In this document: in pieces, positions 1,105 to 22,018 of the stretch
How the letters are laid out: each line of letters begins with the position of its first letter
How positions within the stretch are numbered: the first letter of the stretch is position 1
Translations under genes and position numbers: made by a program
Source of the DNA: Kitasatospora hibisci
Lineage (GTDB): Bacteria; Actinomycetota; Actinomycetes; Streptomycetales; Streptomycetaceae
Length of the DNA: 24,000 bases
Direction of reading: 5' to 3'
Assembly: GCF_043950205.1 (NCBI RefSeq)
Contig: NZ_CP171642.1
Location: 7,356,294-7,380,293, forward strand
The notes under the pieces: model-generated
What the model was told of the DNA's origin: nothing
Database searches by the model: none
Seen by the model: the letters and a program-made list of their open reading frames with translations, nothing else

Positions 1105-3635
1105 CCGGCGGCGTGCCGCCGGTGAACGGCGGGGGCGTGCCGGCAGGCTCCGCGGTGCGGCGGATCGCGGTGATCGGCGCGGGTCCCGGCGGTCTCTACT
1201 TCGCCGCGCTGGCCAAGAAGTTGGCGCCGCACCGGGAGATCACCGTGTGGGAGCGCGACGCCCGCGACGACGCCCACGGCTTCGGCGTGGTCTTCTCGGA
1301 CGAGACGCTGGACGGCATCGCCCAGGCCGATCCGCCCGTCCTCGCCGCGCTGTCCGCCGAGTTCGCCCGCTGGAGCGACGTCGACGTCCGCTACGCCGGC
1401 CAGGTCCGCACCTGCGGCGGGCACGGCTTCGCCGCGCTGGACCGCAACCGGTTGCGCACGATCCTGCAACAGCGCTGCGCCGCTCTGGGGGTGGACGTGC
1501 GCTACCGCACGCCCGCGCCGCCGGTGGCCCGACTGGCGGCGGGGTACGACCTGGTGGTGGCCGCCGACGGGGTGCGCTCGGCCACCCGGGCGGCGTTCGC
1601 GGAGGCCTTCCGGCCCGAGCTGGACGAGCGGCACTGCCGCTACATCTGGCTCGCCACCGACAAGGTCTTCGAGGCCTTCACCTTCATCGTCGAGCAGCAC
1701 GACTTCGGCGCGCTCCAGGTGCACGCCTATCCGTACAGCCGCCGGCGCTCGACGTTCATCGTGGAGATGGCCGAGGAGGCGTGGCGCAAGGCGGGCTTCG
1801 AGGAGCCGGCCGGCCGGGAGCCGGGGCGCGGGGAGAGCGACCTGCCGAGCGTGCTGCGGTGCGAGCGGCTGCTCGCTCCGCACCTGGACGGGCACCGGCT
1901 GATCCCCAACGCCTCGCGCTGGATCCGTTTCACCACCGTGCGCAACGCGAGCTGGCACCACCGCAACGTGGTGCTGCTCGGGGACGCCGCGCACACCGCC
2001 CACTTCTCGATCGGATCGGGCACCAAGCTGGCCCTGGAGGACGGCCTGGCGCTGGCCGCCGCACTGCACGAACACCCTTTGCTCGAAGCTGCGTTGGTGG
2101 CCTACGAGCGCGAGCGGCGGCCGGTGGTGGAGTCCGCGCAGCGGGCCGCGCAGGCGAGCCTGGAGTGGTTCGAGACCGTCGGCCGGCACACCGGACAGGG
2201 CGCCGATCAGTTCGCCTTCAACCTGCTCACCCGCAGCCGCCGGGTCACCTACGGCAACCTGCGCGCCCGGGACGCCGCCTTCGTGGACGCCGTCGACGCG
2301 GCCTTCGGCGGTGCTGCGGACGGCGCGGCGGCGGCCCGCGCGGCGAGCCCCGACAGCGCGGCCTCCCCGGCCGGGGACCCCGACGGCGGCGGCCCGGCGG
2401 GGGTTGCGCCGATGTTCCGGCCGCTGCGGCTGGGCCGGCTGCGGCTGCGCAACCGGATCGTGGTGCCGCCGCTGGCCACCTTCACCGCCGTCGACGGGAT
2501 GCCCAGCGGCTTCGACCGGGCCCAGCTCTGCGCGCAGGTCCTCGGCGGCGCCGGTCTGGTCTTCACCGGCATGACCGCGGTCAGCGCGCGGGGCCGGGCC
2601 ACCGAGCGGTGTCCGGGCCTGTGGACGGACGCCCAGGAGGCCGCCTGGCGCTCGGTGGTGCGCGCGGCCCGGGAGCTCGGTGACACCCCGGTGGGCATCC
2701 AGCTGACCCACGCCGGCCGGCGCGCGGCGAGCACCGTCCCCGGCCCGGACGGGATCGGGCGCCCCCTCGCGGACGGTTGGCCGACGCTGGCGGCCTCGCC
2801 GCTGCCATGGGCGGCGGGGGGCCCGGCGCCGCACCCGGCCGGCGCGGCGGAACTGGCCGGTGTGGTCGCCGACTTCGCGGCCGCCGCGGCCCGTGCCGAC
2901 CGGGCCGGATTCGACGTGCTGGGGCTGCAGTTCGGCCACGGGCACCTGGTCTCCGGTTTCCTCTCGCCGCTGACCAACCACCGTACCGACCGCTACGGCG
3001 GGCCGCTGGAGCACCGGGTCCGGCTGGCCCTGGAGGTGCTCGCCGCGGTGCGGGCCGCCTGGCCGGCCGGCAAGCCGATCGTGGTCCGGGTCTCGGCCGC
3101 CGACTGGGCGCCGGGCGGAACCACCGAGGCGGAGGCGGTGGCGATCTGCCGGGCACTGGCCGGAGCGGGCGCGGACGCCCTGGACGTCTCCACGGGCGAG
3201 GTGGTCGCGCACCAGGAGGTGCCCTACGGGCGCGGCTACCAGGTGCCGTTCGCCGACCTGATCCGCAACGTGACCGGGATCCCGACCATCGCGGTCGGCG
3301 CGATCTCCGGTCACGACGACGCCAACTCGGTGCTGCTGGCCGGCCGGGCGGACCTGGTCGCGATCGGCCGGGCCCACCTGTACGACCCGCTGTGGACGCT
3401 GCACGCCGCGGCCGAGCAGGGCTACGCGGGCCCCGGGGCGCGCTGGCCGCAGCCGTGGCAGCCGGGCAGCCGTCGGCCGCCCGGGCCCGGCACGGACCGG
3501 GTCGCGCCCCGGCTGCGGCTGCTGCCGGAGGCGGCCGCGCCGGTGCACCGCCGCTGGCTTCCGGCGGACGCTCCGGCCGCCGGAAGCCGGGACCAGAACG
3601 CCGGCCGGGAGCCGACCGAACCCGTGCCGAACTGA
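1101..3635 (+). CDS. Two-domain flavoprotein of the salicylyl-CoA 5-hydroxylase / 2-aminobenzoyl-CoA monooxygenase-reductase family (N-terminal FAD aromatic hydroxylase + C-terminal Old-Yellow-Enzyme-like flavin oxidoreductase)
   Basis: In-frame part of track ORF 726..3635. GTG 1101 overlaps the upstream stop (GTGA); GTG alternatives a few codons downstream are possible. Motifs: IAVIGAGPGG dinucleotide fold, GDAAHTAHFSIGSGTKLALEDG hydroxylase motif, an Ala/Pro/Gly linker, then OYE-type motifs (LRNRIVVPP, QFGHGHLVSGFLSPLTNHRTDRYGG, AIGRAHLYDP). Confidence 0.85.
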   Translation: MTGGVPPVNGGGVPAGSAVRRIAVIGAGPGGLYFAALAKKLAPHREITVWERDARDDAHGFGVVFSDETLDGIAQADPPVLAALSAEFARWSDVDVRYAGQVRTCGGHGFAALDRNRLRTILQQRCAALGVDVRYRTPAPPVARLAAGYDLVVAADGVRSATRAAFAEAFRPELDERHCRYIWLATDKVFEAFTFIVEQHDFGALQVHAYPYSRRRSTFIVEMAEEAWRKAGFEEPAGREPGRGESDLPSVLRCERLLAPHLDGHRLIPNASRWIRFTTVRNASWHHRNVVLLGDAAHTAHFSIGSGTKLALEDGLALAAALHEHPLLEAALVAYERERRPVVESAQRAAQASLEWFETVGRHTGQGADQFAFNLLTRSRRVTYGNLRARDAAFVDAVDAAFGGAADGAAAARAASPDSAASPAGDPDGGGPAGVAPMFRPLRLGRLRLRNRIVVPPLATFTAVDGMPSGFDRAQLCAQVLGGAGLVFTGMTAVSARGRATERCPGLWTDAQEAAWRSVVRAARELGDTPVGIQLTHAGRRAASTVPGPDGIGRPLADGWPTLAASPLPWAAGGPAPHPAGAAELAGVVADFAAAAARADRAGFDVLGLQFGHGHLVSGFLSPLTNHRTDRYGGPLEHRVRLALEVLAAVRAAWPAGKPIVVRVSAADWAPGGTTEAEAVAICRALAGAGADALDVSTGEVVAHQEVPYGRGYQVPFADLIRNVTGIPTIAVGAISGHDDANSVLLAGRADLVAIGRAHLYDPLWTLHAAAEQGYAGPGARWPQPWQPGSRRPPGPGTDRVAPRLRLLPEAAAPVHRRWLPADAPAAGSRDQNAGREPTEPVPN

Positions 3636-8606: not shown

Positions 8607-10220
8607 GTGACCGACCACGCCCCCGCCGACCTGCTGATCCGGTCCCGCGCCGTCCACACGCTCGTCCCCGGCGAGGCTCCACGTCGTGCGCTGGCCGTCA
8701 CCGGCGACCGGATCACCGCGCTGTCCGCCGCGGCCGACGGCCTGGACCACCTGATCGGCCCGGGGACGGAGGTGCTGGACCTGCCCGGCGCCTCCGTGCT
8801 GCCCGCCTTCGACGACACCCACACCCACCTGATCCTCGCCGCACACAGCGTCCACGACGTACCGGTCCACCGGGCCCGCGACCTCGGCGAGTTCCTCGGC
8901 CTGATCCGTGAGCGGGCGGCGAACACACCCCCCGGGCAGTGGATCCGCACCACGATCAACTGGCAGGAGGTCAACCTCGCCGAACAGCGCCTGCCCCGCA
9001 CCGAGGAGTTGGACGCGGCCACCGACCGGCACCCGGTGCTGGTGCGGCGCGGCGCCTACAACATGGTCCTCAACACGCCCGCGCTGCGACTGGCCGGCAT
9101 CACCGGTGCGACCGAGCCTCCGCCCGGCGGCGTGATCGAGCGGGACGAGCAGGGCCGGCTGACCGGCCGGCTGGTCGACAAGGCGGTCGCACTGGCGGAA
9201 CGGGTACTGCCGCGCCCCGCGCTCGCCGATCGCATCGACGGCCTGCGGGCCGCGTCCGCCGACTACGCCGCGACCGGGATCGGCACCGTCCGCGACTGCC
9301 TCGTCCCGGTGGAGGACCTCGACGTGCTCGGTGCGGCCCGCCAGGCCGGTGCGCTGAGCGTGCGGGTGCGCGCCCTGGTCTCCGGCTTCGGGGCCCGCAC
9401 GCCCGCGCAGGTGGACGAACTGCTCGACCGGATGGAGCCCCGGCGCGCCGAGGGCGACGCGTGGTTGAGCGTGTGGGGCGTCAAGTTCGGCATCGACGGC
9501 GGCATCGAGGCGGGCGCCCTGGACGAACCGTACGAAGGCCGCCCGTGCTACCACGGCACCCTGCTCTGGGAGCCGGAGGAGCTGGCCGCCGCGGTCGACC
9601 GGGTGGTCGCGCGCGGCTGGCGGGTCGGCGTGCACGCCTGGGGGGACCGCGGCCTCCGCACGTTGCTGGACGTCTTCGAGCAGGTGCTCAAGGACCGCCC
9701 CGGCCTGGCCCCGGGCACCCTGGTGGTCGAGCACGGCGGCCTGGCCAGGCCCGACCAGCGAGCGCGTGCGATCGCGCTCGGCATCCCGGTCACCGTCCAG
9801 CACCCGCTGCTGCACGACGCGGCGACGGCCCAGATCCGGGCCTGGGGCGCCGAGCGGGTGCGCGGCATCTTCCCGCTGCGGGAGTGGCTGGACGAGGGCG
9901 CGCTGCTGGCGGCCGGCTCGGACTTCCCCGTCGGGCCGTACGGGGCGATGGTCTCGGTCTGGGGTATGACGACCCGGCAGACCGTGGCGGGCGCACAGGG
10001 CGCCGAGCACGCGATCACCCGGGCCGAGGCGATCGCGCTGCACACCGTCGACGCGGCCCGCCTGCTCGGCGAGAGCGGCACCCGCGGGAGCCTGCGCCCC
10101 GGCGCGCTGGCGGACCTCACCCTCTGGCCCGCCGACCCGCTGACCTGCCCGCCCGACGAGCTGGCCGAGCTGCGGCCGCTCCGCACCGTCCTCGGCGGCC
10201 GGACGGTCCACCGGACCTGA
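8607..10220 (+). CDS. Metal-dependent amidohydrolase (amidohydrolase-3 / YtcJ-like)
   Basis: Track ORF. GTG 8607 has GAGGAG 8 nt upstream. HxH metal motif AFDDTHTHL; C-terminal AAGSDFPV block; ~537 aa as in YtcJ-like enzymes. Confidence 0.8.
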   Translation: MTDHAPADLLIRSRAVHTLVPGEAPRRALAVTGDRITALSAAADGLDHLIGPGTEVLDLPGASVLPAFDDTHTHLILAAHSVHDVPVHRARDLGEFLGLIRERAANTPPGQWIRTTINWQEVNLAEQRLPRTEELDAATDRHPVLVRRGAYNMVLNTPALRLAGITGATEPPPGGVIERDEQGRLTGRLVDKAVALAERVLPRPALADRIDGLRAASADYAATGIGTVRDCLVPVEDLDVLGAARQAGALSVRVRALVSGFGARTPAQVDELLDRMEPRRAEGDAWLSVWGVKFGIDGGIEAGALDEPYEGRPCYHGTLLWEPEELAAAVDRVVARGWRVGVHAWGDRGLRTLLDVFEQVLKDRPGLAPGTLVVEHGGLARPDQRARAIALGIPVTVQHPLLHDAATAQIRAWGAERVRGIFPLREWLDEGALLAAGSDFPVGPYGAMVSVWGMTTRQTVAGAQGAEHAITRAEAIALHTVDAARLLGESGTRGSLRPGALADLTLWPADPLTCPPDELAELRPLRTVLGGRTVHRT

Positions 10221-10270
10221 CGGCCGTCCGGCCACGGCCGGGCCGCCGGCGCGCATGCGCTGATCCGCGA

Positions 10271-10292
10271 CTTCATCGGGCTGTCATCGGCC
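10271..10292 (+). promoter_or_regulatory. Copy 1 of a 22-bp element CTTCATCGGGcTGTCATCGGCC (two TCATCGG heptamers, 11-bp register); candidate activator (SARP/OmpR-type) binding site
   Basis: Matches 11179..11200 at 21 of 22 positions. It lies 86 nt upstream of the ATG at 10378. Seven nt after the second heptamer comes CACCGT (A2 and T6 of a -10 retained). Confidence 0.35.
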
Positions 10293-10377
10293 GCTGTCAC
10301 CGTCGTCCGGTGATCTCGGCCGACCGCGTGCCGCACCGGAGAGCGGGCGCGTGGGCCGACTGCGTTGGGAGGAACGA

Positions 10378-11046
10378 ATGCGAGCACGACGGATCGCGGC
10401 CGCGGCAGCCGGAATCCTGCTGACGGTCGGGCTGACAGCGGCACAGGGGGCCACGGCACAGGGGGCCACCGCGCGCGTGACGGCTCCGTGCGAGGGCACC
10501 TACACGATCGTCGTCGGGGGCACCGGCAGCTCGTGGAACAACGACGGGTTCACCGGCAACATCCAGCAGCACGTCGGGTATCCCACCCAGATCCCCAACG
10601 GTGCCAGCACGCGGGCCGGCGTCAACGAGCTGAACCGGCTGGTCCGCGACCAGCGGGCCGCGTGCCCGGGCCAGCACGTCAAGATGGCCGGGTACTCGCT
10701 GGGAGCCGGGGTGGTGCACGTCTGGGTCACCGAGAACTGGCAGACCTTCGACAACGTCAACGCCATCCTCGTCTCGGACCCCAAGCGCCAGGGCCCGCCC
10801 GGGGCCAACGGCGGGGCCGTGCCGTTCGGCGGAATCATCGGGGCTCCGCTCGCCGGTGCCGACAGGTTCTTCGGCAACGTGCCCGTCAAGACGATCTGCC
10901 ACTGGGACTACGTCTGCGACGAGTCCGCCGGCATCTGGACCTACCCGTACAACCACGTCCACAACTACCCCGAAGACTTCAACATGGACCACCACAACGA
11001 CAGTGCCAACGAGGTCTGGTACAACGGCGCCTGGTACCCCGCGTAG
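10378..11046 (+). CDS. Secreted cutinase-like serine hydrolase (divergent)
   Basis: In-frame part of track ORF 10351..11046. ATG 10378 is preceded by GGGAGGAA. Signal peptide MRARRIAAAAAGILLTVGLTAAQG. Cutinase-like layout: Cys near the N-terminus (APCEGTYTIVVGGTGSS), nucleophile elbow ACPGQHVKMAGYSLGAG, VSDPKR, C-terminal ICHWDYVCD..H. Confidence 0.65.
   Translation: MRARRIAAAAAGILLTVGLTAAQGATAQGATARVTAPCEGTYTIVVGGTGSSWNNDGFTGNIQQHVGYPTQIPNGASTRAGVNELNRLVRDQRAACPGQHVKMAGYSLGAGVVHVWVTENWQTFDNVNAILVSDPKRQGPPGANGGAVPFGGIIGAPLAGADRFFGNVPVKTICHWDYVCDESAGIWTYPYNHVHNYPEDFNMDHHNDSANEVWYNGAWYPA
10441..10470 (+). repeat. 15-bp tandem duplication (gcacagggggccacg x2, last base differs) encoding QGATA-QGATA at the signal-peptide/mature junction
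   Basis: Read directly from the sequence; in frame within the cutinase-like CDS. Confidence 0.8.
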
Positions 11047-11090
11047 GCAGTGAACGCCCGTCGGCCGGGCCCGTGGCCGCAGTCCTGCAC

Positions 11091-11130
11091 CGCCTGTCGA
11101 CGGCCGGGAACGTCCGGCCGCCGACAGGCG
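11091..11130 (+). terminator. Stem-loop, candidate intrinsic terminator after the cutinase-like gene
   Basis: Arms are CGCCTGTCGACGGCCGG and CCGGCCGCCGACAGGCG (17 nt, one mismatch) with loop GAACGT, 45 nt after the stop. There is no T-tract, which is common in high-GC actinomycetes. Confidence 0.5.
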
Positions 11131-11178
11131 GTGAGCCGTTTCCGCCGCCGTGCAGCTCTGCCGCCCCGGGGTGCGACG

Positions 11179-11200
11179 CTTCATCGGGATGTCATCGGCC
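11179..11200 (+). promoter_or_regulatory. Copy 2 of the 22-bp element CTTCATCGGGaTGTCATCGGCC; candidate activator binding site plus promoter
   Basis: Heptamers TCATCGG lie at 11181-11187 and 11192-11198. Seven nt downstream is TAGCCT (TAnnnT -10-like, 11206-11211). The ATG of the acylase gene is at 11259. Confidence 0.35.
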
Positions 11201-11258
11201 CTCCCTAGCCTGGCCGTGTTCAGTCAAACGACCGGACCGCAGGGGGAAGGACGACTCG

Positions 11259-13739
11259 ATGGCACGGAGCAGACTCGAAGCGAGGCTGCCGATCGCGGTC
11301 ATGGCCGCGATGGCACTGATGAGCACGGTGGCGGCGGCCGGGACACCGGCCGCCGGGGGCCCGGCCGCCGTACGGGGGCCGGCGCCGGACCGGCCGACGA
11401 TCCGGTACACCGAGTACGGGATCCCGCACATCATCGCCTCGACCCTGGAGGGCCTGGGCGAGGGGTACGGATACGCGGCGGCCAAGGACAACATCTGCAC
11501 CCTGGCCGACACCTACCTGATGGTCAGCGCCCAGCGGTCCCGCTACCTGGGGGCCGACGGCAGGGCGAGCCCCGGCCAGAACCAGAACAGCACCAGCAAT
11601 CTCAACAGCGACCTGTACTTCCAGCGGATGAACGACGACCGGGTGGTGGAGCGACTGCTCGACCAGCCCGCCCCCAACGGGCCGGAGCCGGAGGTCAAGG
11701 AGGCCATCCGCGGCTATGTCCGGGGGTACAACAGGTACCTGGCCGAGACCGGCGTGAACAACCTCTCCGACCCGGCCTGCCGGGGCGCGGCCTGGGTGCG
11801 GCCGATCACCGAGCTGGACGTCTACCGGCACGCGCACGCCGAGATCATCATGGGCAGCGCCGATCCGCTGCTGGACGGCGAGGTGAACGCCGCGCCCCCG
11901 GGAGCCGCCGCCGCGCCGTCCGCCGCCGCGCCGGCGGTCTCCCCGGAGGAGACCGCGGCGAAGATCCGCGAGGCCATGGCCGCGAGCCGGCAACAGGGCA
12001 GCATGGGCAGCAACGCCCTGGCGGTCGGGTCGCAGGGCCTGGCCGCGGGCACCGGCACCAGCATGCTGCTGGCCAACCCGCACTTCCCGTGGCAGGGCAA
12101 GAACCGGATGTGGCAGAGCCAGCTGACGATCCCGGGGAAGATGAACGTCTCCGGGGCCAGCCTGCTCGGACTCCCCGCGGTGAACATCGGGCACACCGAC
12201 GACGTCGCCTGGAGTCACACCGTCGCCACGGTCGCCCCGTTCGGGCTGTTCGACGTGCAGGTGGACCCGCTGCACCCGACCAACTACCTGGTGGACGGCG
12301 CCTGGCAGCAGATGACCTCGCAGCAGGTCGGCGTCGACGTGCTGAATCCGGACGGCTCCCTCGGCAGGGTCACCAGGACGCTGTGGTCCACCCGCTACGG
12401 TCCGGTCACCACCTCCGTGCTCGGCGTCGCGCTGCCCTGGGTGGTGAGTGCGCACGCGGTGCGCGACGCGAACATGGACAACCTGCGGGCCCTGAACACC
12501 TGGTTCCACCTCGACCAGGCCAAGGACGTCGACGACGTGGTGAGCACGCTGGAGACCACGCAGGGCGTGCCGTTCTTCAACACCGTCGCCTCCGACCGCA
12601 AGGGCAACGCGCTGTACGCGGACATCCAGGCCGCCCCGAACATCACCGACGCGCACGCGCAGTCCTGCCTCACCCTGACCGGCCAGGTGCTGTTCAACCA
12701 GCAACTGCGGCTGCCCAACGTGCCGCCGGTCTCCGTCTTCGACGGCAAGCGCAGCGAGTGCGACTGGCCGGACGACCCGAATGCCGTCGCACCGGGACTG
12801 CTGGACCCGCACAAGCAGCCGCGCCTGATCCGGTCCGACTTCGTGGGCAACGCCAACGACAGCGCCTGGCTGGCCAACCCCGAGCAGCCGCTGTCCTTTC
12901 CCCGGGTGATGGGCGACACCGCGGCGCCCCGCTCGCTGCGCACCCAGGAGCTGATCCTGACCGCGCAGAACCGGATCAGCGGCAGCGACGGCCTGCCTGG
13001 CCGGGGTTTCACCCCGGAGGCCATGCGGCAGTTGCTGTTCGCCGACAACAGCAGGGCGGCCGACCTGGCCCTCAACGCCACGGTGAGCATGTGCCGCAGC
13101 CAGCCCTTCGGGCTCGTCCTGGTGGACGGCAACCTGGTCAACGTGAGCGAGGCCTGCCCGATCCTGGCCGCCTGGAACCACAAGTACACCGCGGACAGCC
13201 GAGGGTCCTGGCTGTTCGAGAACTTCTGGTACCTCCTGACCAACGGCCAGGCGATCGAGAAGCTGCCGTGGCGGGTTCCCTTCGACCCCAAGGACCCCGT
13301 GCACACGCCCAACTCGCTGGACCCCGGGAGCTCCGCCGTCCGTGACGCGCTCGGCCGGGCGGTCCTCGCGCTGCGCAACGCGGGCGTTCCGCTGAACGCG
13401 CCGCTGTCGGACGTCCAGAAGATCACCCGCAACGCCGAGCAGATCCCGATCCACGGGGCGATCCACGAAATGGGCGTGCTGAACGTGGTCACTCCCGGAA
13501 CGGTCGACGGAAGGCTGGACATCACCTTCGGCTCCAGCTTCGTCCAGGAGACGCGGTTCACCGCCGACGGCCCGCCGCAGGCCGCCTCGCTGCTGGCCTA
13601 CTCCCAGTCCGCCGACCCGAACTCGCCGCACCACTCGGACCAGACCAAGCTGTTCTCGGCCGGCCAGTGGGTGACCGAACGCTACACCGAGGAGCAGATC
13701 GCGGCCTCACCGGCGCTGGAGATCAAGGTCCTGGACTGA
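11259..13739 (+). CDS. Secreted penicillin-acylase-family Ntn hydrolase (AHL acylase / aculeacin A acylase-like)
   Basis: In-frame part of track ORF 10365..13739. ATG 11259 is preceded by GGGGGAAGGA, and there is a signal peptide. Motifs: TEYGIPHI, the autoprocessing/nucleophile context GSMG-SNALAVGS, and LLANPHFPWQG. ~826 aa. Confidence 0.85.
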   Translation: MARSRLEARLPIAVMAAMALMSTVAAAGTPAAGGPAAVRGPAPDRPTIRYTEYGIPHIIASTLEGLGEGYGYAAAKDNICTLADTYLMVSAQRSRYLGADGRASPGQNQNSTSNLNSDLYFQRMNDDRVVERLLDQPAPNGPEPEVKEAIRGYVRGYNRYLAETGVNNLSDPACRGAAWVRPITELDVYRHAHAEIIMGSADPLLDGEVNAAPPGAAAAPSAAAPAVSPEETAAKIREAMAASRQQGSMGSNALAVGSQGLAAGTGTSMLLANPHFPWQGKNRMWQSQLTIPGKMNVSGASLLGLPAVNIGHTDDVAWSHTVATVAPFGLFDVQVDPLHPTNYLVDGAWQQMTSQQVGVDVLNPDGSLGRVTRTLWSTRYGPVTTSVLGVALPWVVSAHAVRDANMDNLRALNTWFHLDQAKDVDDVVSTLETTQGVPFFNTVASDRKGNALYADIQAAPNITDAHAQSCLTLTGQVLFNQQLRLPNVPPVSVFDGKRSECDWPDDPNAVAPGLLDPHKQPRLIRSDFVGNANDSAWLANPEQPLSFPRVMGDTAAPRSLRTQELILTAQNRISGSDGLPGRGFTPEAMRQLLFADNSRAADLALNATVSMCRSQPFGLVLVDGNLVNVSEACPILAAWNHKYTADSRGSWLFENFWYLLTNGQAIEKLPWRVPFDPKDPVHTPNSLDPGSSAVRDALGRAVLALRNAGVPLNAPLSDVQKITRNAEQIPIHGAIHEMGVLNVVTPGTVDGRLDITFGSSFVQETRFTADGPPQAASLLAYSQSADPNSPHHSDQTKLFSAGQWVTERYTEEQIAASPALEIKVLD

Positions 13740-13783: not shown

Positions 13784-14866
13784 GTGACGAGGACATGGAG
13801 CCGGTGGCGCATGGTGGTGGCCCTGCTGGCCGCCGTCCTGGCGACGGCCACGACGGCGGGTACGGCACGGGCCGCCGGCGGCACCGGGGCGCCGCCGCCG
13901 ATGGCGAACGGGTTCGGCCTGACCCAGGTCGAACCCGCCGTGGGCGGTCCGACCAACTTCTACCTCACCGTGACCACTCCCGAGGTCACGGGCCGGCACC
14001 ACATCAAGATCATCCTGCCGGGCGGGTACTACGACGACCCGACCAGGCGCTACCCCGTGCTGTACTTCCTGCACGGCTCACCCGACGACCCCGTCCAGCA
14101 GAACTACCCGGCGCTGACCATGTCCGACTCGATGATCACCGTCATCCCGGACGGCGGTGCCCGGGGCTGGTACGCCAACTGGCTCGACCAGAACACCCTG
14201 CTCGGAGCCCAGAACTGGGAGAACTTCCACCTCCGGCAGGTGGTCCCGTTCATCGACGCGAACCTGCGGACCGTCGCCGCCAAGAAGGCCAGGGCCGTCG
14301 CGGGCGTCTCGATGGGCGGCTTCGGGGCCCTCCACTACGCCCAGGACCACCCCGAGCTGTTCAGCCAGACCGCGTCACTGTCGGGAGACATCGATCTGTC
14401 GGCCGACTCCATGGACCTGCGGCTGGCCGTCGTCGCCTCCCTCATCGACGCACAGGGCGCGCTCTGCGGCTCGTCCTCCGGATTCTGCGGCGACCCCGCG
14501 AACGACCCGTACAAGCCCGGCGTGGACAGCGACGCCCTGTTCGGCTCGCCCTACCCGGTCTTCAACGTGGACTGGCGGTGGAACGCGGCCGACCCGTCCC
14601 AGCACATGGACAAACTCGCCGGAGTCGGGGTCTCCATCTACGTGGGCAACGGACGCGGCGTGCCGACCGACCTGGAGTTCTGGCTCGAAGGCGCGTCCAA
14701 GCACGTCAAGGACCGGATGGACGCCCTGGGCATGTCCTACCACTACGTCGACTACGGCGACGGCTCCGGCTGGGGCACCCAGTGCAACGGCGGCCACAAC
14801 GCCGGCTGCTGGGAACAGGACCTCCGGGACCTGATCCCCCGGCTCGAACGGGCCTTCGCTTCCTGA
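13784..14866 (+). CDS. Secreted alpha/beta-hydrolase esterase (esterase D / mycolyltransferase-like family)
   Basis: In-frame part of track ORF 13667..14866. GTG 13784 is preceded by GAGAGGGAA; ATG 13739 is an alternative start. Signal peptide WRMVVALLAAVLATATTAGTARA. Motifs YPVLYFLHG and GVSMGGFGAL (GxSxG). Confidence 0.75.
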   Translation: MTRTWSRWRMVVALLAAVLATATTAGTARAAGGTGAPPPMANGFGLTQVEPAVGGPTNFYLTVTTPEVTGRHHIKIILPGGYYDDPTRRYPVLYFLHGSPDDPVQQNYPALTMSDSMITVIPDGGARGWYANWLDQNTLLGAQNWENFHLRQVVPFIDANLRTVAAKKARAVAGVSMGGFGALHYAQDHPELFSQTASLSGDIDLSADSMDLRLAVVASLIDAQGALCGSSSGFCGDPANDPYKPGVDSDALFGSPYPVFNVDWRWNAADPSQHMDKLAGVGVSIYVGNGRGVPTDLEFWLEGASKHVKDRMDALGMSYHYVDYGDGSGWGTQCNGGHNAGCWEQDLRDLIPRLERAFAS

Positions 14867-14904: not shown

Positions 14905-15975
14905 TCACCGCGTGGCTGCGGTCAGGCCCGGGCCGACCTCGTCCCCGCTCAGGATCAGCCGGTGCGTCTGCCGCAGCAGCCGACTCGGCGCGACCCCCAG
15001 GTCGTCGGCCAGCCGGCGGCGGGCGCGGTCGAACACGGTCAGCGCCTCGGCCTGTCGGCCACTCCGGTACAGCGCACGCATCAGCATCGCGGCCACCGGC
15101 TCGTTCAGGGGGTGCTCCGCAGCCAGGGCGAACAGCTCGGCGGTCGCCTCGGCGCACCGGCCCAGTCGCAGCTGCCACTCCAGCTTCCGCTGGGTGACGG
15201 CGATCCTGCGCTCGGCGAGCCGCAGCCGCTCCAACTCGGCCAGCGGGCCGGGCAGCCCGGCGAGGAGCTCGCCGCGGAACAGGTCCAGGGCCCGGGCACA
15301 GAGGCGGACCGCCTCGGTCGGGTCGCCCGCCCGATGGGCGGCCCCGGCTTCGGTGACCAGGCGCTCCATGCGCGCCAGGTCCACCTCGACCGCACCCGGT
15401 ACCAGCCGGTAGCCGCACCGGGCGTGCTCGATCACCGAGTCCGGGCTGTCCCCGATGCGCAGGGTCTTGCGGAGGCGGTAGATGTGGACCGGTACCACGT
15501 TCGTGACCGGCTGGTCCGACCCCCAGACGCCGTCCAGCAGTTCCTGCTGGCTGACGGTCCGCCCCGCGTGCAGCGCCAGTGCTGCCAGCACGGCTTGCTG
15601 GCGCAGGTGCCCCAGGTCCAGGGACCGCCCGCCCCACCGGGCCTGCAGCGGTCCGAGTACGGAGATCTGCACCTTCGGCCCGGCCGCCGGGCCGGCGGTG
15701 CTGCGCGGAACCGGGCCCGCCGCCTGTGAGCGGGGGCCGCAGCCGGGGGAGACCACTCCGCAGTCGAAGGCGTGGACGATGGCGGCGGCGCGGTCGCGCA
15801 GCCCGAGCTTCCCGAGGATCCGCGCGACGTGCCCGGCCACGGCCTCCTCGGAGATCGCGAGGGCGGTGGCGATCTCGTCGTCCCGCAGGCCGCAGCCGAC
15901 CGCGTGGAGCACGTCGCGCTCGTGGGGACCGAGCGCGGCGGCGTTCGGCCGGCGGGTGGTGGCGGTCGTCGGCAT
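14905..15975 (-). CDS. Transcriptional regulator: N-terminal LuxR/GerE-type HTH fused to a SARP module (OmpR-type winged helix + BTAD)
   Basis: In-frame part of track ORF 14905..16752. ATG at 15975 is preceded by GGGAG. LuxR HTH: ERDVLHAVGCGLRDDEIATALAISEEAVAGHVARILGKLGLRDRAAA. SARP: ISVLGPLQARWGGRSLDLG..RQQAVLAALAL..IYRLRKTL..GYRL. The BTAD region follows (DLARMERL..LRLAERRI..MRALYRSGRQAEALTVFDRARRRLADDLGVAPS). Confidence 0.8.
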   Translation of the reverse strand: MPTTATTRRPNAAALGPHERDVLHAVGCGLRDDEIATALAISEEAVAGHVARILGKLGLRDRAAAIVHAFDCGVVSPGCGPRSQAAGPVPRSTAGPAAGPKVQISVLGPLQARWGGRSLDLGHLRQQAVLAALALHAGRTVSQQELLDGVWGSDQPVTNVVPVHIYRLRKTLRIGDSPDSVIEHARCGYRLVPGAVEVDLARMERLVTEAGAAHRAGDPTEAVRLCARALDLFRGELLAGLPGPLAELERLRLAERRIAVTQRKLEWQLRLGRCAEATAELFALAAEHPLNEPVAAMLMRALYRSGRQAEALTVFDRARRRLADDLGVAPSRLLRQTHRLILSGDEVGPGLTAATR

Positions 15976-16123
15976 CGCTGCTCCCTGGACTCCGGGCCGG
16001 CCGGTCCGGCGGACGCCGTCGACGGTAGTGACGGGCGCCCCGGGCCCGTAATCCGGAACGATCCGGAGGAGGGCGCACGGCGGTTCCCGCCGTGGACGCC
16101 CGGTCAGGACCGCGGGCAGCCGG

Positions 16124-17485
16124 TCAGGGGCAGTGGACGAGGGCGGGGTGGTCCTTGGTGCGGACGGCGGGGAGCCAGGCGGTGGTGGGGCCGGGGAGGT
16201 GGACGCGGTACCAGAGGGTGGAGGAGCGGTCCTCTTCGTCGATGACGGGGAGGCCGGTGGGGAGTTGGCAGTCGGCGTCGAGGAGGTCGTCGTGCCAGAC
16301 GCGGGTGGGAACGACGTTCTCGGCGGTGTAGGGGCGAAGGGGGTCGACGGCGAGGCCGAGGCTGCACCGGGGGTCGCGGTCGGCGCGGTCCTGGCAGCTG
16401 CGTTCGGCGTTGAAGACCCTGATGCGGGTGGGGTGTTCGGCCGGGCCGGAGTGCGGCCGCAACACGGCGACGGCGACCGCGGCCGCGGCGCAGGCGGCGA
16501 GGGCGAGCACGACGGTGCGCGGTCGGGGGTGACGGGTGCGGCGGCCGGACCGGTGGGCGCGGATCCGGGCGAGCAGGCTCTCGGCGGTGTACGGGGCGCG
16601 GGCGGCGTGGGTGGGGGCGAGGCAGTCGGCGGCGAGGGCGCGCCAGAACGGGGGGACCTCGGGGGCCAGTCGCAGCGCGGCGCGGCCCTGGGCGTACTGC
16701 TGGGCGGCGGCGCTGCGGGCGGTGGGGGTGGCGCCGGGGAAGGGCGGGACACCGGCGGCGAACACCTCGTGGATCACGATGCCGAGCGCCCAGATGTCGG
16801 CGGTGGGACGGATCTTGACGCCGTGTTCGCCGAGCGGCTCCCTCCAGCGCTCCGGCGGGAGGTAGTCGGGGGTGCCCATGGGGGCGGAGTGGCCGTGGGT
16901 GCCGGTGAGTTCGATGGCGAGGCCGAAGTCGGAGAGGCGGACCTCGCCGTCCTCGGCGATGAGGACGTTCTCTGGCTTGAGGTCGGTGTGGACCCAGCCG
17001 GAGCGGTGCAGGTGGGCCAGGCCCTCGCAGATGCCGGCGATGATCCGGGCGCCCCGGTCCTCGTCGACGCCGGTGGCGAGCAGGTCGCGCAGCGTGCCCC
17101 GGGCCCGTTCCATCACCAGGACGGTCGCGCCGTCGAGCGCGGGGTGGCCGGGGGAGTCCAGGGCGAGGGTGTCGAGCAGGCGGACCAGCCGAGGGTGCGG
17201 GGCGGTGCGGGCCAACTCGGCCTCGCGGCGCGCGGCGTCGGCGACCTGGCGGGCCTGGCGGGGGGCGAGTCCGGCGGTCGGCAGCACCTTGAGGGCCACG
17301 GTGTCGTCCACGCCGGCCGTGTTGTCCGAGCCGTCGGCACGAGTGGTGTCCTCGGCCCGGCGGGCGGCGTAGACGGTGGCCCATCCCCCTTCGCCGATCG
17401 GCTCGGTGACGATCCAGTCGCCGATCCGGTGGCCGGCGGGCAGCAGTTCCTGTCCGGACCCGCGGAAGGCCGGAACGTGCACCAT
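16124..17485 (-). CDS. Membrane Ser/Thr protein kinase (Hanks type, non-RD) with a Cys-containing extracytoplasmic C-terminal domain
   Basis: Track ORF. Motifs: IGEGGWATVY, VALKVL, HTDLKPENVLI (Thr instead of Arg before the catalytic Asp), SDFGLA, GTPDYLPPE. TM segment VVLALAACAAAAVAVAVL, then ~110 aa with 4 Cys. Confidence 0.85.
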   Translation of the reverse strand: MVHVPAFRGSGQELLPAGHRIGDWIVTEPIGEGGWATVYAARRAEDTTRADGSDNTAGVDDTVALKVLPTAGLAPRQARQVADAARREAELARTAPHPRLVRLLDTLALDSPGHPALDGATVLVMERARGTLRDLLATGVDEDRGARIIAGICEGLAHLHRSGWVHTDLKPENVLIAEDGEVRLSDFGLAIELTGTHGHSAPMGTPDYLPPERWREPLGEHGVKIRPTADIWALGIVIHEVFAAGVPPFPGATPTARSAAAQQYAQGRAALRLAPEVPPFWRALAADCLAPTHAARAPYTAESLLARIRAHRSGRRTRHPRPRTVVLALAACAAAAVAVAVLRPHSGPAEHPTRIRVFNAERSCQDRADRDPRCSLGLAVDPLRPYTAENVVPTRVWHDDLLDADCQLPTGLPVIDEEDRSSTLWYRVHLPGPTTAWLPAVRTKDHPALVHCP

Positions 17486-21581: not shown

Positions 21582-22018
21582 CGGGCCGCCCCTCACGCCT
21601 TGCACGGACGGCCGACGGTGCCGCCGGGCGCCGACGGGCCCGCGGCGCCCGGTTCCGGTGCGGCGACGAACCCGCCGGGGGAGTTCGGGACGCTGCTGCG
21701 GGTGGGGTGGTGCGCGGTCAACGTGACCTCCTGCGGGCGTGACGGCCACCTGTCCGGACCGCCGGGGAGTGGGGCGGTTGGGACGGTAGCCACGCACCGC
21801 ACGGCACAGAACCCGGAACCATCCGGACTGACAGGGGCTCACCGGCCGAGGAGACTGTCGTCCTCCGGACGGGGCTGTGCAGGGCACGCCGGACGGCGGC
21901 GGGAATGCGTGGTCGGCACATGCGTGGTCAGCAGGAGTCGACGGACCGGCCCCGCCCCGGCAGAGGCGGGCCTGAACGGCCGGGGACCCGTAGGGCGGGG
22001 TCAGCCGCCCGCCGGGGG

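Follow-up and report, generated by a model that had tools for sequence, protein, structure and literature searches.

A 24,000-nucleotide stretch of the Kitasatospora hibisci genome (contig NZ_CP171642.1, positions 7,356,294 to 7,380,293; hereafter the window) carries the same 22-bp element in front of two transcription units for secreted hydrolases. The element contains two TCATCGG heptamers in 11-bp register, and the question raised by the locus is which protein reads it. A sequence-only reading had proposed a small regulon controlled by the adjacent LuxR::SARP protein or by another OmpR-family activator. The first candidate is retained here: the box is probably the operator of the neighboring GerE-SARP regulator (14905-15975, minus strand), which would activate weak promoters of secreted-hydrolase genes. 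The adjacent regulator is favored because the box is found only where its gene exists, follows its neighbors through rearrangements, and has no other site in the genome. Across Kitasatospora and Streptomyces, box and regulator gene are inherited together, and their association survives gene rearrangement, which supports the small regulon originally proposed.

The direct-repeat box in the source genome

Both copies have the form CTTCATCGGG(c/a)TGTCATCGGCC and lie on the plus strand. Box 1, CTTCATCGGGcTGTCATCGGCC, occupies 10271-10292, with heptamers at 10273-10279 and 10284-10290; box 2, CTTCATCGGGaTGTCATCGGCC, occupies 11179-11200, with heptamers at 11181-11187 and 11192-11198. Each is thus made of two 11-bp direct repeat units, the heptamer starts being 11 bp apart (10273/10284 and 11181/11192). 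Read directly, the two sequences agree at 21 of 22 positions while their flanks are unrelated, as first described. The distance of 7 nt from the second heptamer to a hexamer is also correct in both copies: CACCGT (10298-10303) follows box 1 and TAGCCT (11206-11211) follows box 2. These are the predicted -10 elements of the cutinase and the acylase promoters, with predicted starts at about 10310 and 11218, respectively. CACCGT is of the same type as the CACTGT of the afsS promoter, and several orthologues carry CACTGT itself; TAGNNT is kept in the acylase-upstream alignment. From the end of the box to the start codon, 86 nt (ATG 10378) and 59 nt (ATG 11259) were counted, in agreement with the first description.

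The source genome is a single contig of 8,506,699 bp (8.5 Mb; 73% G+C). The genome-wide pattern search suggested by the sequence-only reading was run, and TCATCGG-N4-TCATCGG was found at these two places only. Chance is excluded, since the window holds two copies where 0.16 are expected and the rest of the genome holds none. A weight matrix built from orthologous box sites scores the two boxes at 38.5 and 35.2 bits. The next genomic match reaches 26.1 bits; this match and the three next-best ones, when examined, all lie inside coding regions. The matrix scan detected no further copy above 5 bits anywhere in the window, so the lytic genes are indeed without a box.

A scan of 10150-11350 for promoter and terminator consensus sequences gave no match of either kind, so neither intergenic region has a consensus sigma-70 promoter. 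This fits activator-dependent promoters, although it is uninformative on its own.

Conservation and linkage to the regulator gene

An exact search for the box with an NNTG spacer covered 167 congeneric genomes. It returned 25 boxes distributed over 21 other genomes, with four of them in pairs at a distance of 800-960 bp. All 21 box-bearing genomes encode a full-length regulator orthologue (at least as good as E 1e-158), whose gene shares the contig with the box at a distance of 1-6 kb; only about 34 of the 167 genomes (about 20%) have this orthologue. Conservation upstream of orthologous genes, another check proposed at the outset, was followed in the loci around regulator orthologues: the box precedes all 28 cutinase orthologues and 22 of the 23 acylase orthologues. 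In the sole exception (L047), the acylase gene lies directly behind the cutinase gene. The cutinase gene keeps its box even where acylase and esterase are absent (L035, L036, L041, L046, L053). A degraded box, TCATCGGGGTGTCGTCGG, was also encountered in L035 (7159-7176, minus strand; 27 bits) between the regulator and the cutinase gene, in this genome lacking acylase and esterase. It is followed by a decayed hexamer and looks like the relic of a lost acylase promoter.

In the alignments, the flanks upstream of the box cannot be aligned, and conservation starts exactly at cTTCATCGG. The downstream 5' untranslated regions are also kept among close relatives. The column consensus of 53 sites reads c-K-TCATCGG-g-n-TG-TCATCG-s, with invariant or nearly invariant heptamer columns, 8-9 conserved positions and 2-3 free ones per 11-bp unit. 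In 52 of the 53, a hexamer whose second base is A and whose sixth is T starts 7 nt past the second heptamer. Together with the two 11-bp-phased repeats and a 20-bp spacing from TTCATC to the hexamer (CACCGT or TAGCCT), as in afsS, this bears out the SARP-box geometry that had been proposed. The box is under strong purifying selection, and its position is fixed relative to the -10-like hexamer.

Outside the genus, 50 of 362 sampled Streptomyces genomes (about 14%) have regulator orthologues of 57-80% identity, and so does one additional genus. The other sampled families of the order yielded no orthologue. The regulator gene is linked to its apparent targets through several gene layouts. In Streptomyces, at least five different layouts have the box staying with cutinase, acylase, esterase, a lytic-enzyme homologue, and other genes, always beside the regulator. 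For the hydrolases, the layouts seen are a cutinase gene alone; a cutinase gene divergent from acylase and esterase, the esterase having its own box; a cutinase gene with a distant acylase-esterase operon; and acylase-esterase without cutinase. The esterase's own box scores 31.6-34.0 bits in three Streptomyces loci (L081, L111, L112).

Boxes of variant sequence stand before the genes of a lytic-enzyme homologue, a second cutinase/PE-PPE-like paralogue, and a condensation-domain protein; in each case, a hexamer of TANNNT type comes 7 nt later. For example, in L117 (8844-10578, plus strand), the variant TTCCATCGGTATTTCATCGG, 7 nt, and TACTGT precede the gene of a 553-aa protein that is 49% identical, over 468 residues, to the lysozyme-like/FG-GAP lytic enzyme of the window. 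Similar sites occur in L088, L089, L099, L108, L119, L124, and L146. As the variant box precedes this homologue, the lytic function joins the direct-repeat regulon in Streptomyces but not in the window.

All copies, across the five promoter classes, keep their heptamers in 11-bp phase. An independent set of 28 loci (0.82 Mb), sharing no 60-mers with the training sites of the matrix, contains 17 sites of at least 20 bits, against three in 17 Mb for the source genome. The A2/T6 hexamer follows in all 17.

A diverged regulator clade, of about 70% identity, has variant boxes and lacks the palindrome described below (L095, L098, L120, L123, L137, L145, and others; about 8760-8930, plus strand, and about 1770-1900, minus strand). 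Here, TTTCATCGnnATKYCAACGG, 7 nt, and TAACGT precede the cutinase/PE-PPE paralogue, and TTTCATCTTTnTTTCATCGC, 7 nt, and TAGCTT precede the condensation-domain protein.

Candidate binder and rival explanations

The candidate binder is a protein of 356 aa, for which start codon and ribosome-binding site were located. It consists of an N-terminal helix-turn-helix (HTH) of the GerE/LuxR type (PF00196), an OmpR-type winged helix (PF00486), and a BTAD domain (PF03704). The latter two stand in the order that defines SARPs and score above their cut-offs (52 and 134.7 bits). Its closest solved relative is the SARP domain of AfsR (8hvr; E 6e-46, about 45% identity); EmbR also matches (E 2e-25). The OmpR-type recognition helix, VPVHIYRLRK, is intact and hardly differs among orthologues; its VHIYRLRK belongs to the canonical PhoB/OmpR type. 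A GerE HTH is present as well (37.2 bits vs. a cut-off of 23.5), residues 5-81 matching the HTH domains of NarL, VraR, and DosR. In LuxR/GerE proteins, this HTH typically forms the C-terminal part and follows a receiver or ligand-binding domain; here, on the contrary, it lies at residues ~15-75 with no sensor domain in front. Its recognition helix reads AVAGH, without the typical basic residues, where NarL-type proteins have TVKVH.

The subfamily is widespread and so far uncharacterized. Database searches returned 739 matches at E <1e-30, with generic names only among the 120 matches listed. A literature search found no paper on this regulator family and nothing relevant on SARPs in connection with cutinase; searches with the heptamer strings gave irrelevant primer matches only.

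SARPs bind direct repeats that recur every 11 or 22 bp, the 3' repeat lying 8 bp from the -10 element (PMC10936776, PMC10972967). A close parallel is the afs box of Streptomyces coelicolor bound by the SARP domain of AfsR, visualized by cryo-electron microscopy (8HVR, 8JKE, 8K60; PMC10936776, PMC11301090). In the afsS promoter, the 22-bp afs box spans -40 to -19; a poor -35 element, TTCAGC (-38 to -33), lies inside the upstream repeat and is separated from a weak -10 element, CACTGT, by an unusual 20-bp spacer (PMC11301090, PMC10936776). The present boxes are arranged alike: two 11-bp direct repeats form a 22-bp site at about -40 to -19 (10270-10291 for box 1 in afs-box register, counted from the predicted start), and a -35-like hexamer in the upstream repeat, TTCATC instead of TTCAGC, stands 20 bp from a weak -10 hexamer. 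In each 11-bp repeat, AfsR contacts no more than the first 8 bp (PMC10936776), and the conserved and free columns of the box match these first ~8 bp per unit. The differences lie in the repeat core, here TCATCGG, in the apparent targets, which are secreted-hydrolase genes, and in the regulator. AfsR is a NOD/TPR protein of ~1000 aa; the present regulator is a small SARP with an additional N-terminal GerE HTH, and it is cluster-situated and accessory, its gene occurring in the minority of Kitasatospora and Streptomyces genomes counted above.

By analogy, one winged-helix domain would contact each 11-bp unit (consensus c-K-TCATCGG plus 2-3 free bases). The hydrolase promoters have a -10-like hexamer but no usable -35 element at normal spacing; a regulator dimer would replace -35 recognition and recruit RNA polymerase with the housekeeping sigma factor, as AfsR does at afsS.

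In its position beside its apparent targets, the regulator gene resembles those of the cluster-situated activators ActII-ORF4, DnrI, and RedD. They also act on heptameric direct repeats at 11-bp intervals that overlap the -35 region, and some 8 bp separate the 3' repeat from the -10 element. Those activators use TCGAG-type heptamers, often in three repeats, and control antibiotic clusters. Here, on the contrary, there are two repeats of another heptamer and a hydrolase regulon, and no biosynthetic genes are present in the window. A SARP module combined with LuxR-family-related sequence is also known from the SARP-LALs, such as PimR and SanG, which bind heptameric direct repeats with 4-nt spacers (PMC10972967). 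Their LAL part is large, C-terminal, and without a LuxR HTH (PMC10972967), whereas the present regulator has a small, complete GerE-type HTH at its N-terminus.

Several points weigh against the assignment to the adjacent regulator. The linkage could simply reflect the inheritance of one accessory island. The box also resembles the repeat units of AfsR and PhoP, so a global regulator could bind it instead or as well. Nor did protein and DNA show covariation, since neither the box core nor the recognition helix varies; the SARP recognition helix and the GerE helix are almost invariant in all clades, including the one with a variant box and no palindrome. Finally, a few exact 17-mer matches occur in genomes without the regulator (G034, G035). 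Allowing one mismatch in the 17-mer search across the genus swamped the result with unrelated coding matches, and only exact matches or matrix scores were useful. Separately, TCATCGG-N4-TCATCGG with a CCSG or TTCG spacer and the flank ttgtctgtacagctc was seen in L009, L013, L016, L017, and L030 (center about 1500), in surroundings that are conserved but unrelated to those of the box. As these five genomes have no regulator, the context points to a different element or to coding sequence.

The most serious rival explanation is that a global SARP or OmpR-type regulator, AfsR and/or PhoP, is the main binder and that the GerE-SARP is a passenger or co-regulator. This is unlikely, even though AfsR and PhoP bind overlapping 11-nt repeat units and every genome of the genus has large AfsR-like SARPs. 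The AfsR unit given in a review, CGTT(T/C)ATCGNN, is close to cTTCATCGG (PMC10972967). AfsR and PhoP are universal, yet the box is confined to genomes with the GerE-SARP gene. Nor does the source genome offer such a regulator any further site above background; around the one AfsR-like gene examined there, no box-like site was detected (best score 8.4 bits), nor was an afsS promoter identified. AfsR nevertheless remains a rival or co-binder, to judge by its similar repeat unit and its SARP domain, the closest solved relative of the regulator.

The case of PhoP can be followed base by base. Like PHO boxes and the pho boxes of PhoB, the element is built of 11-nt units with a TCA core and overlaps the -35 region. 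Its second unit, cTGTCAT, equals the pho-box heptamer of Escherichia coli, CTGTCAT. Moreover, each unit matches 8 of the 11 positions of the Streptomyces PHO consensus, which Sola-Landa et al. are said to have given in 2008 as G(G/T)TCAYYYR(G/C)G. The positions that depart from PHO (C/T as the first base of the unit, T as the sixth, and G as the eighth), however, are unchanged across two genera. The core of the Streptomyces PHO box is GTTCACC (PMC6988585), and the pstS2 promoter of the source genome indeed has GTTCACT twice at 11-nt spacing, whereas the units of the present box read cTTCATC and TGTCATC. Canonical PHO boxes, GTTCACTctccGTTCACTtcgg, were observed upstream of one of the two pstS genes (G000:C1 about 3738000, L069), the other pstS gene having none. 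A Pho regulon comprises many sites, before phosphate-scavenging genes; the box has two sites only, neither pstS promoter matches it, and no receiver-domain regulator is linked to it. With PHO boxes of another sequence at its own pstS target and the present box nowhere else in the genome, PhoP is weakened as the alternative OmpR-family activator.

It is more doubtful still that the element represses, being bound over the -35 region and spacer by a different, unlinked response regulator or repressor. Repressors typically have sites over -40 to -19 (PMC11301090), and 11-bp direct repeats are common to the whole OmpR family. The geometry, however, is an exact match to SARP activation, and no other regulator gene is consistently linked to the box across layouts. 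Furthermore, neither promoter has a usable -35 element at 16-18 bp, so both would seem to need an activator. That the box is no protein site at all, but a duplicated promoter fragment or an alternative-sigma -35/-10 pair conserved by descent, is very improbable: the copies are nearly identical and the 5' untranslated regions behind them are conserved too, but the flanks are unrelated, the box still occurs at about 70% identity of the regulator and before non-homologous genes in constant 11-bp phase, and heptamer-to-hexamer distances of 7 and 18 nt fit neither sigma-70 nor extracytoplasmic function sigma spacing.

Probable target genes and a second element

Upstream of box 1, an amidohydrolase gene ends at 10220. 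Behind the box lies the gene of a cutinase-like secreted serine hydrolase of 222 aa (10378-11046, plus strand; PF01083, E 2.4e-09) with a signal-like N-terminus. In its predicted 5' untranslated region, the 12-mer GGCCGACYGCGT occurs twice (10318-10329 and 10354-10365, plus strand), 36 nt apart, and is kept among orthologues. This region folds no better than shuffled sequence (z -0.8), and a structured leader RNA is therefore unsupported. The cutinase and acylase units are separated by a terminator-like stem-loop with a 20-bp stem (11088-11133, plus strand; -43.9 kcal/mol, z -3.8). None of 200 shuffled sequences folds as well, and the inverted repeat is kept in many aligned Kitasatospora orthologues.

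Box 2 precedes an Ntn-hydrolase acylase of 826 aa (11259-13739, plus strand; PF01804, E 5.5e-123) of the PvdQ/MacQ-like N-acyl amide acylase family. Structural matches are PDB 5c9i (E 4.7e-142) and PvdQ (E 7e-124); the score against the NCBIfam PvdQ model, 569 bits, is under the cut-off of that model. The next gene encodes a PF00756-type esterase (13784-14866, plus strand; E 2.8e-29), whose start is uncertain (13742, 13784, or 13811) and whose in-frame orthologues show 72-96% identity. It has no box of its own in the window and is presumably co-transcribed with the acylase gene. Past the regulator gene come genes for a Ser/Thr kinase (16124-17485), an FHA-like protein, and two lytic enzymes with FG-GAP propellers.

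A second element was found by aligning the regulator's own upstream regions. It is a near-palindrome of the form TCCGGAT-NGT-TCCGGRT (TCCGGA-N4-TCCGGA), followed 21-23 nt later by CTACCGT, and only two copies exist in the genome. The first, TCCGGATCGTTCCGGAT (16051-16067, minus strand), lies in the promoter of the regulator gene itself, with TACCGT (16027-16022) following 23 nt downstream, and is kept upstream of nearly all orthologues in both genera. The near copy TCCGGATGGTTCCGGGT (21811-21827, minus strand), also followed by CTACCGT, precedes the M23/FG-GAP lytic gene (GTG 21581) by about 230 nt and is kept in about 20 distinct Kitasatospora genomes, the locus sets overlapping partly in genomes. 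The palindrome is present in 45 of the 167 genomes of the genus, and a control pattern in none. Between the palindrome-bearing promoter and the M23 start, a 42-codon open reading frame was observed (21593-21721, minus strand; TTG start, AGGAGG 7 nt upstream), which could be a leader peptide or a chance reading frame.

The two elements together suggest, tentatively and with the odds against it, a two-headed activator: the SARP winged helix would read the TCATCGG box before the hydrolase genes, and the GerE HTH the palindrome, centered near -43/-44, in the promoters of the regulator gene and of the lytic operon. One protein, possibly gated by the adjacent FHA and Ser/Thr kinase pair, might then coordinate an "attack secretome" by the same logic in Kitasatospora and Streptomyces. 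About 13 genomes without the regulator keep one copy of the palindrome, and the GerE helix is the same in clades with and without it. For these two reasons, reading of the palindrome by the GerE head is put forward as a hypothesis only. If the idea holds, the secretome under such a regulator would comprise cell-wall lytic enzymes along with the cutinase, the N-acyl-amide acylase, and the esterase.

For the box itself, the locus offers a clean regulon of two promoters, for which operator, -10 element, and binder are all predicted. It would be a natural small-SARP counterpart to the AfsR/afsS structural model, with a regulator that has two different DNA-binding domains. SARPs have been defined and mined as switches of antibiotic biosynthesis; the present subfamily appears to control secreted hydrolases, its apparent targets being a cutinase-like enzyme, a PvdQ-like acylase, an esterase and, in Streptomyces, also the lytic-enzyme homologue. 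SARP genes reportedly serve as beacons for biosynthetic clusters in genome mining, an approach that would mis-call this subfamily. A family known for switching on antibiotic genes thus probably switches on secreted enzymes here.

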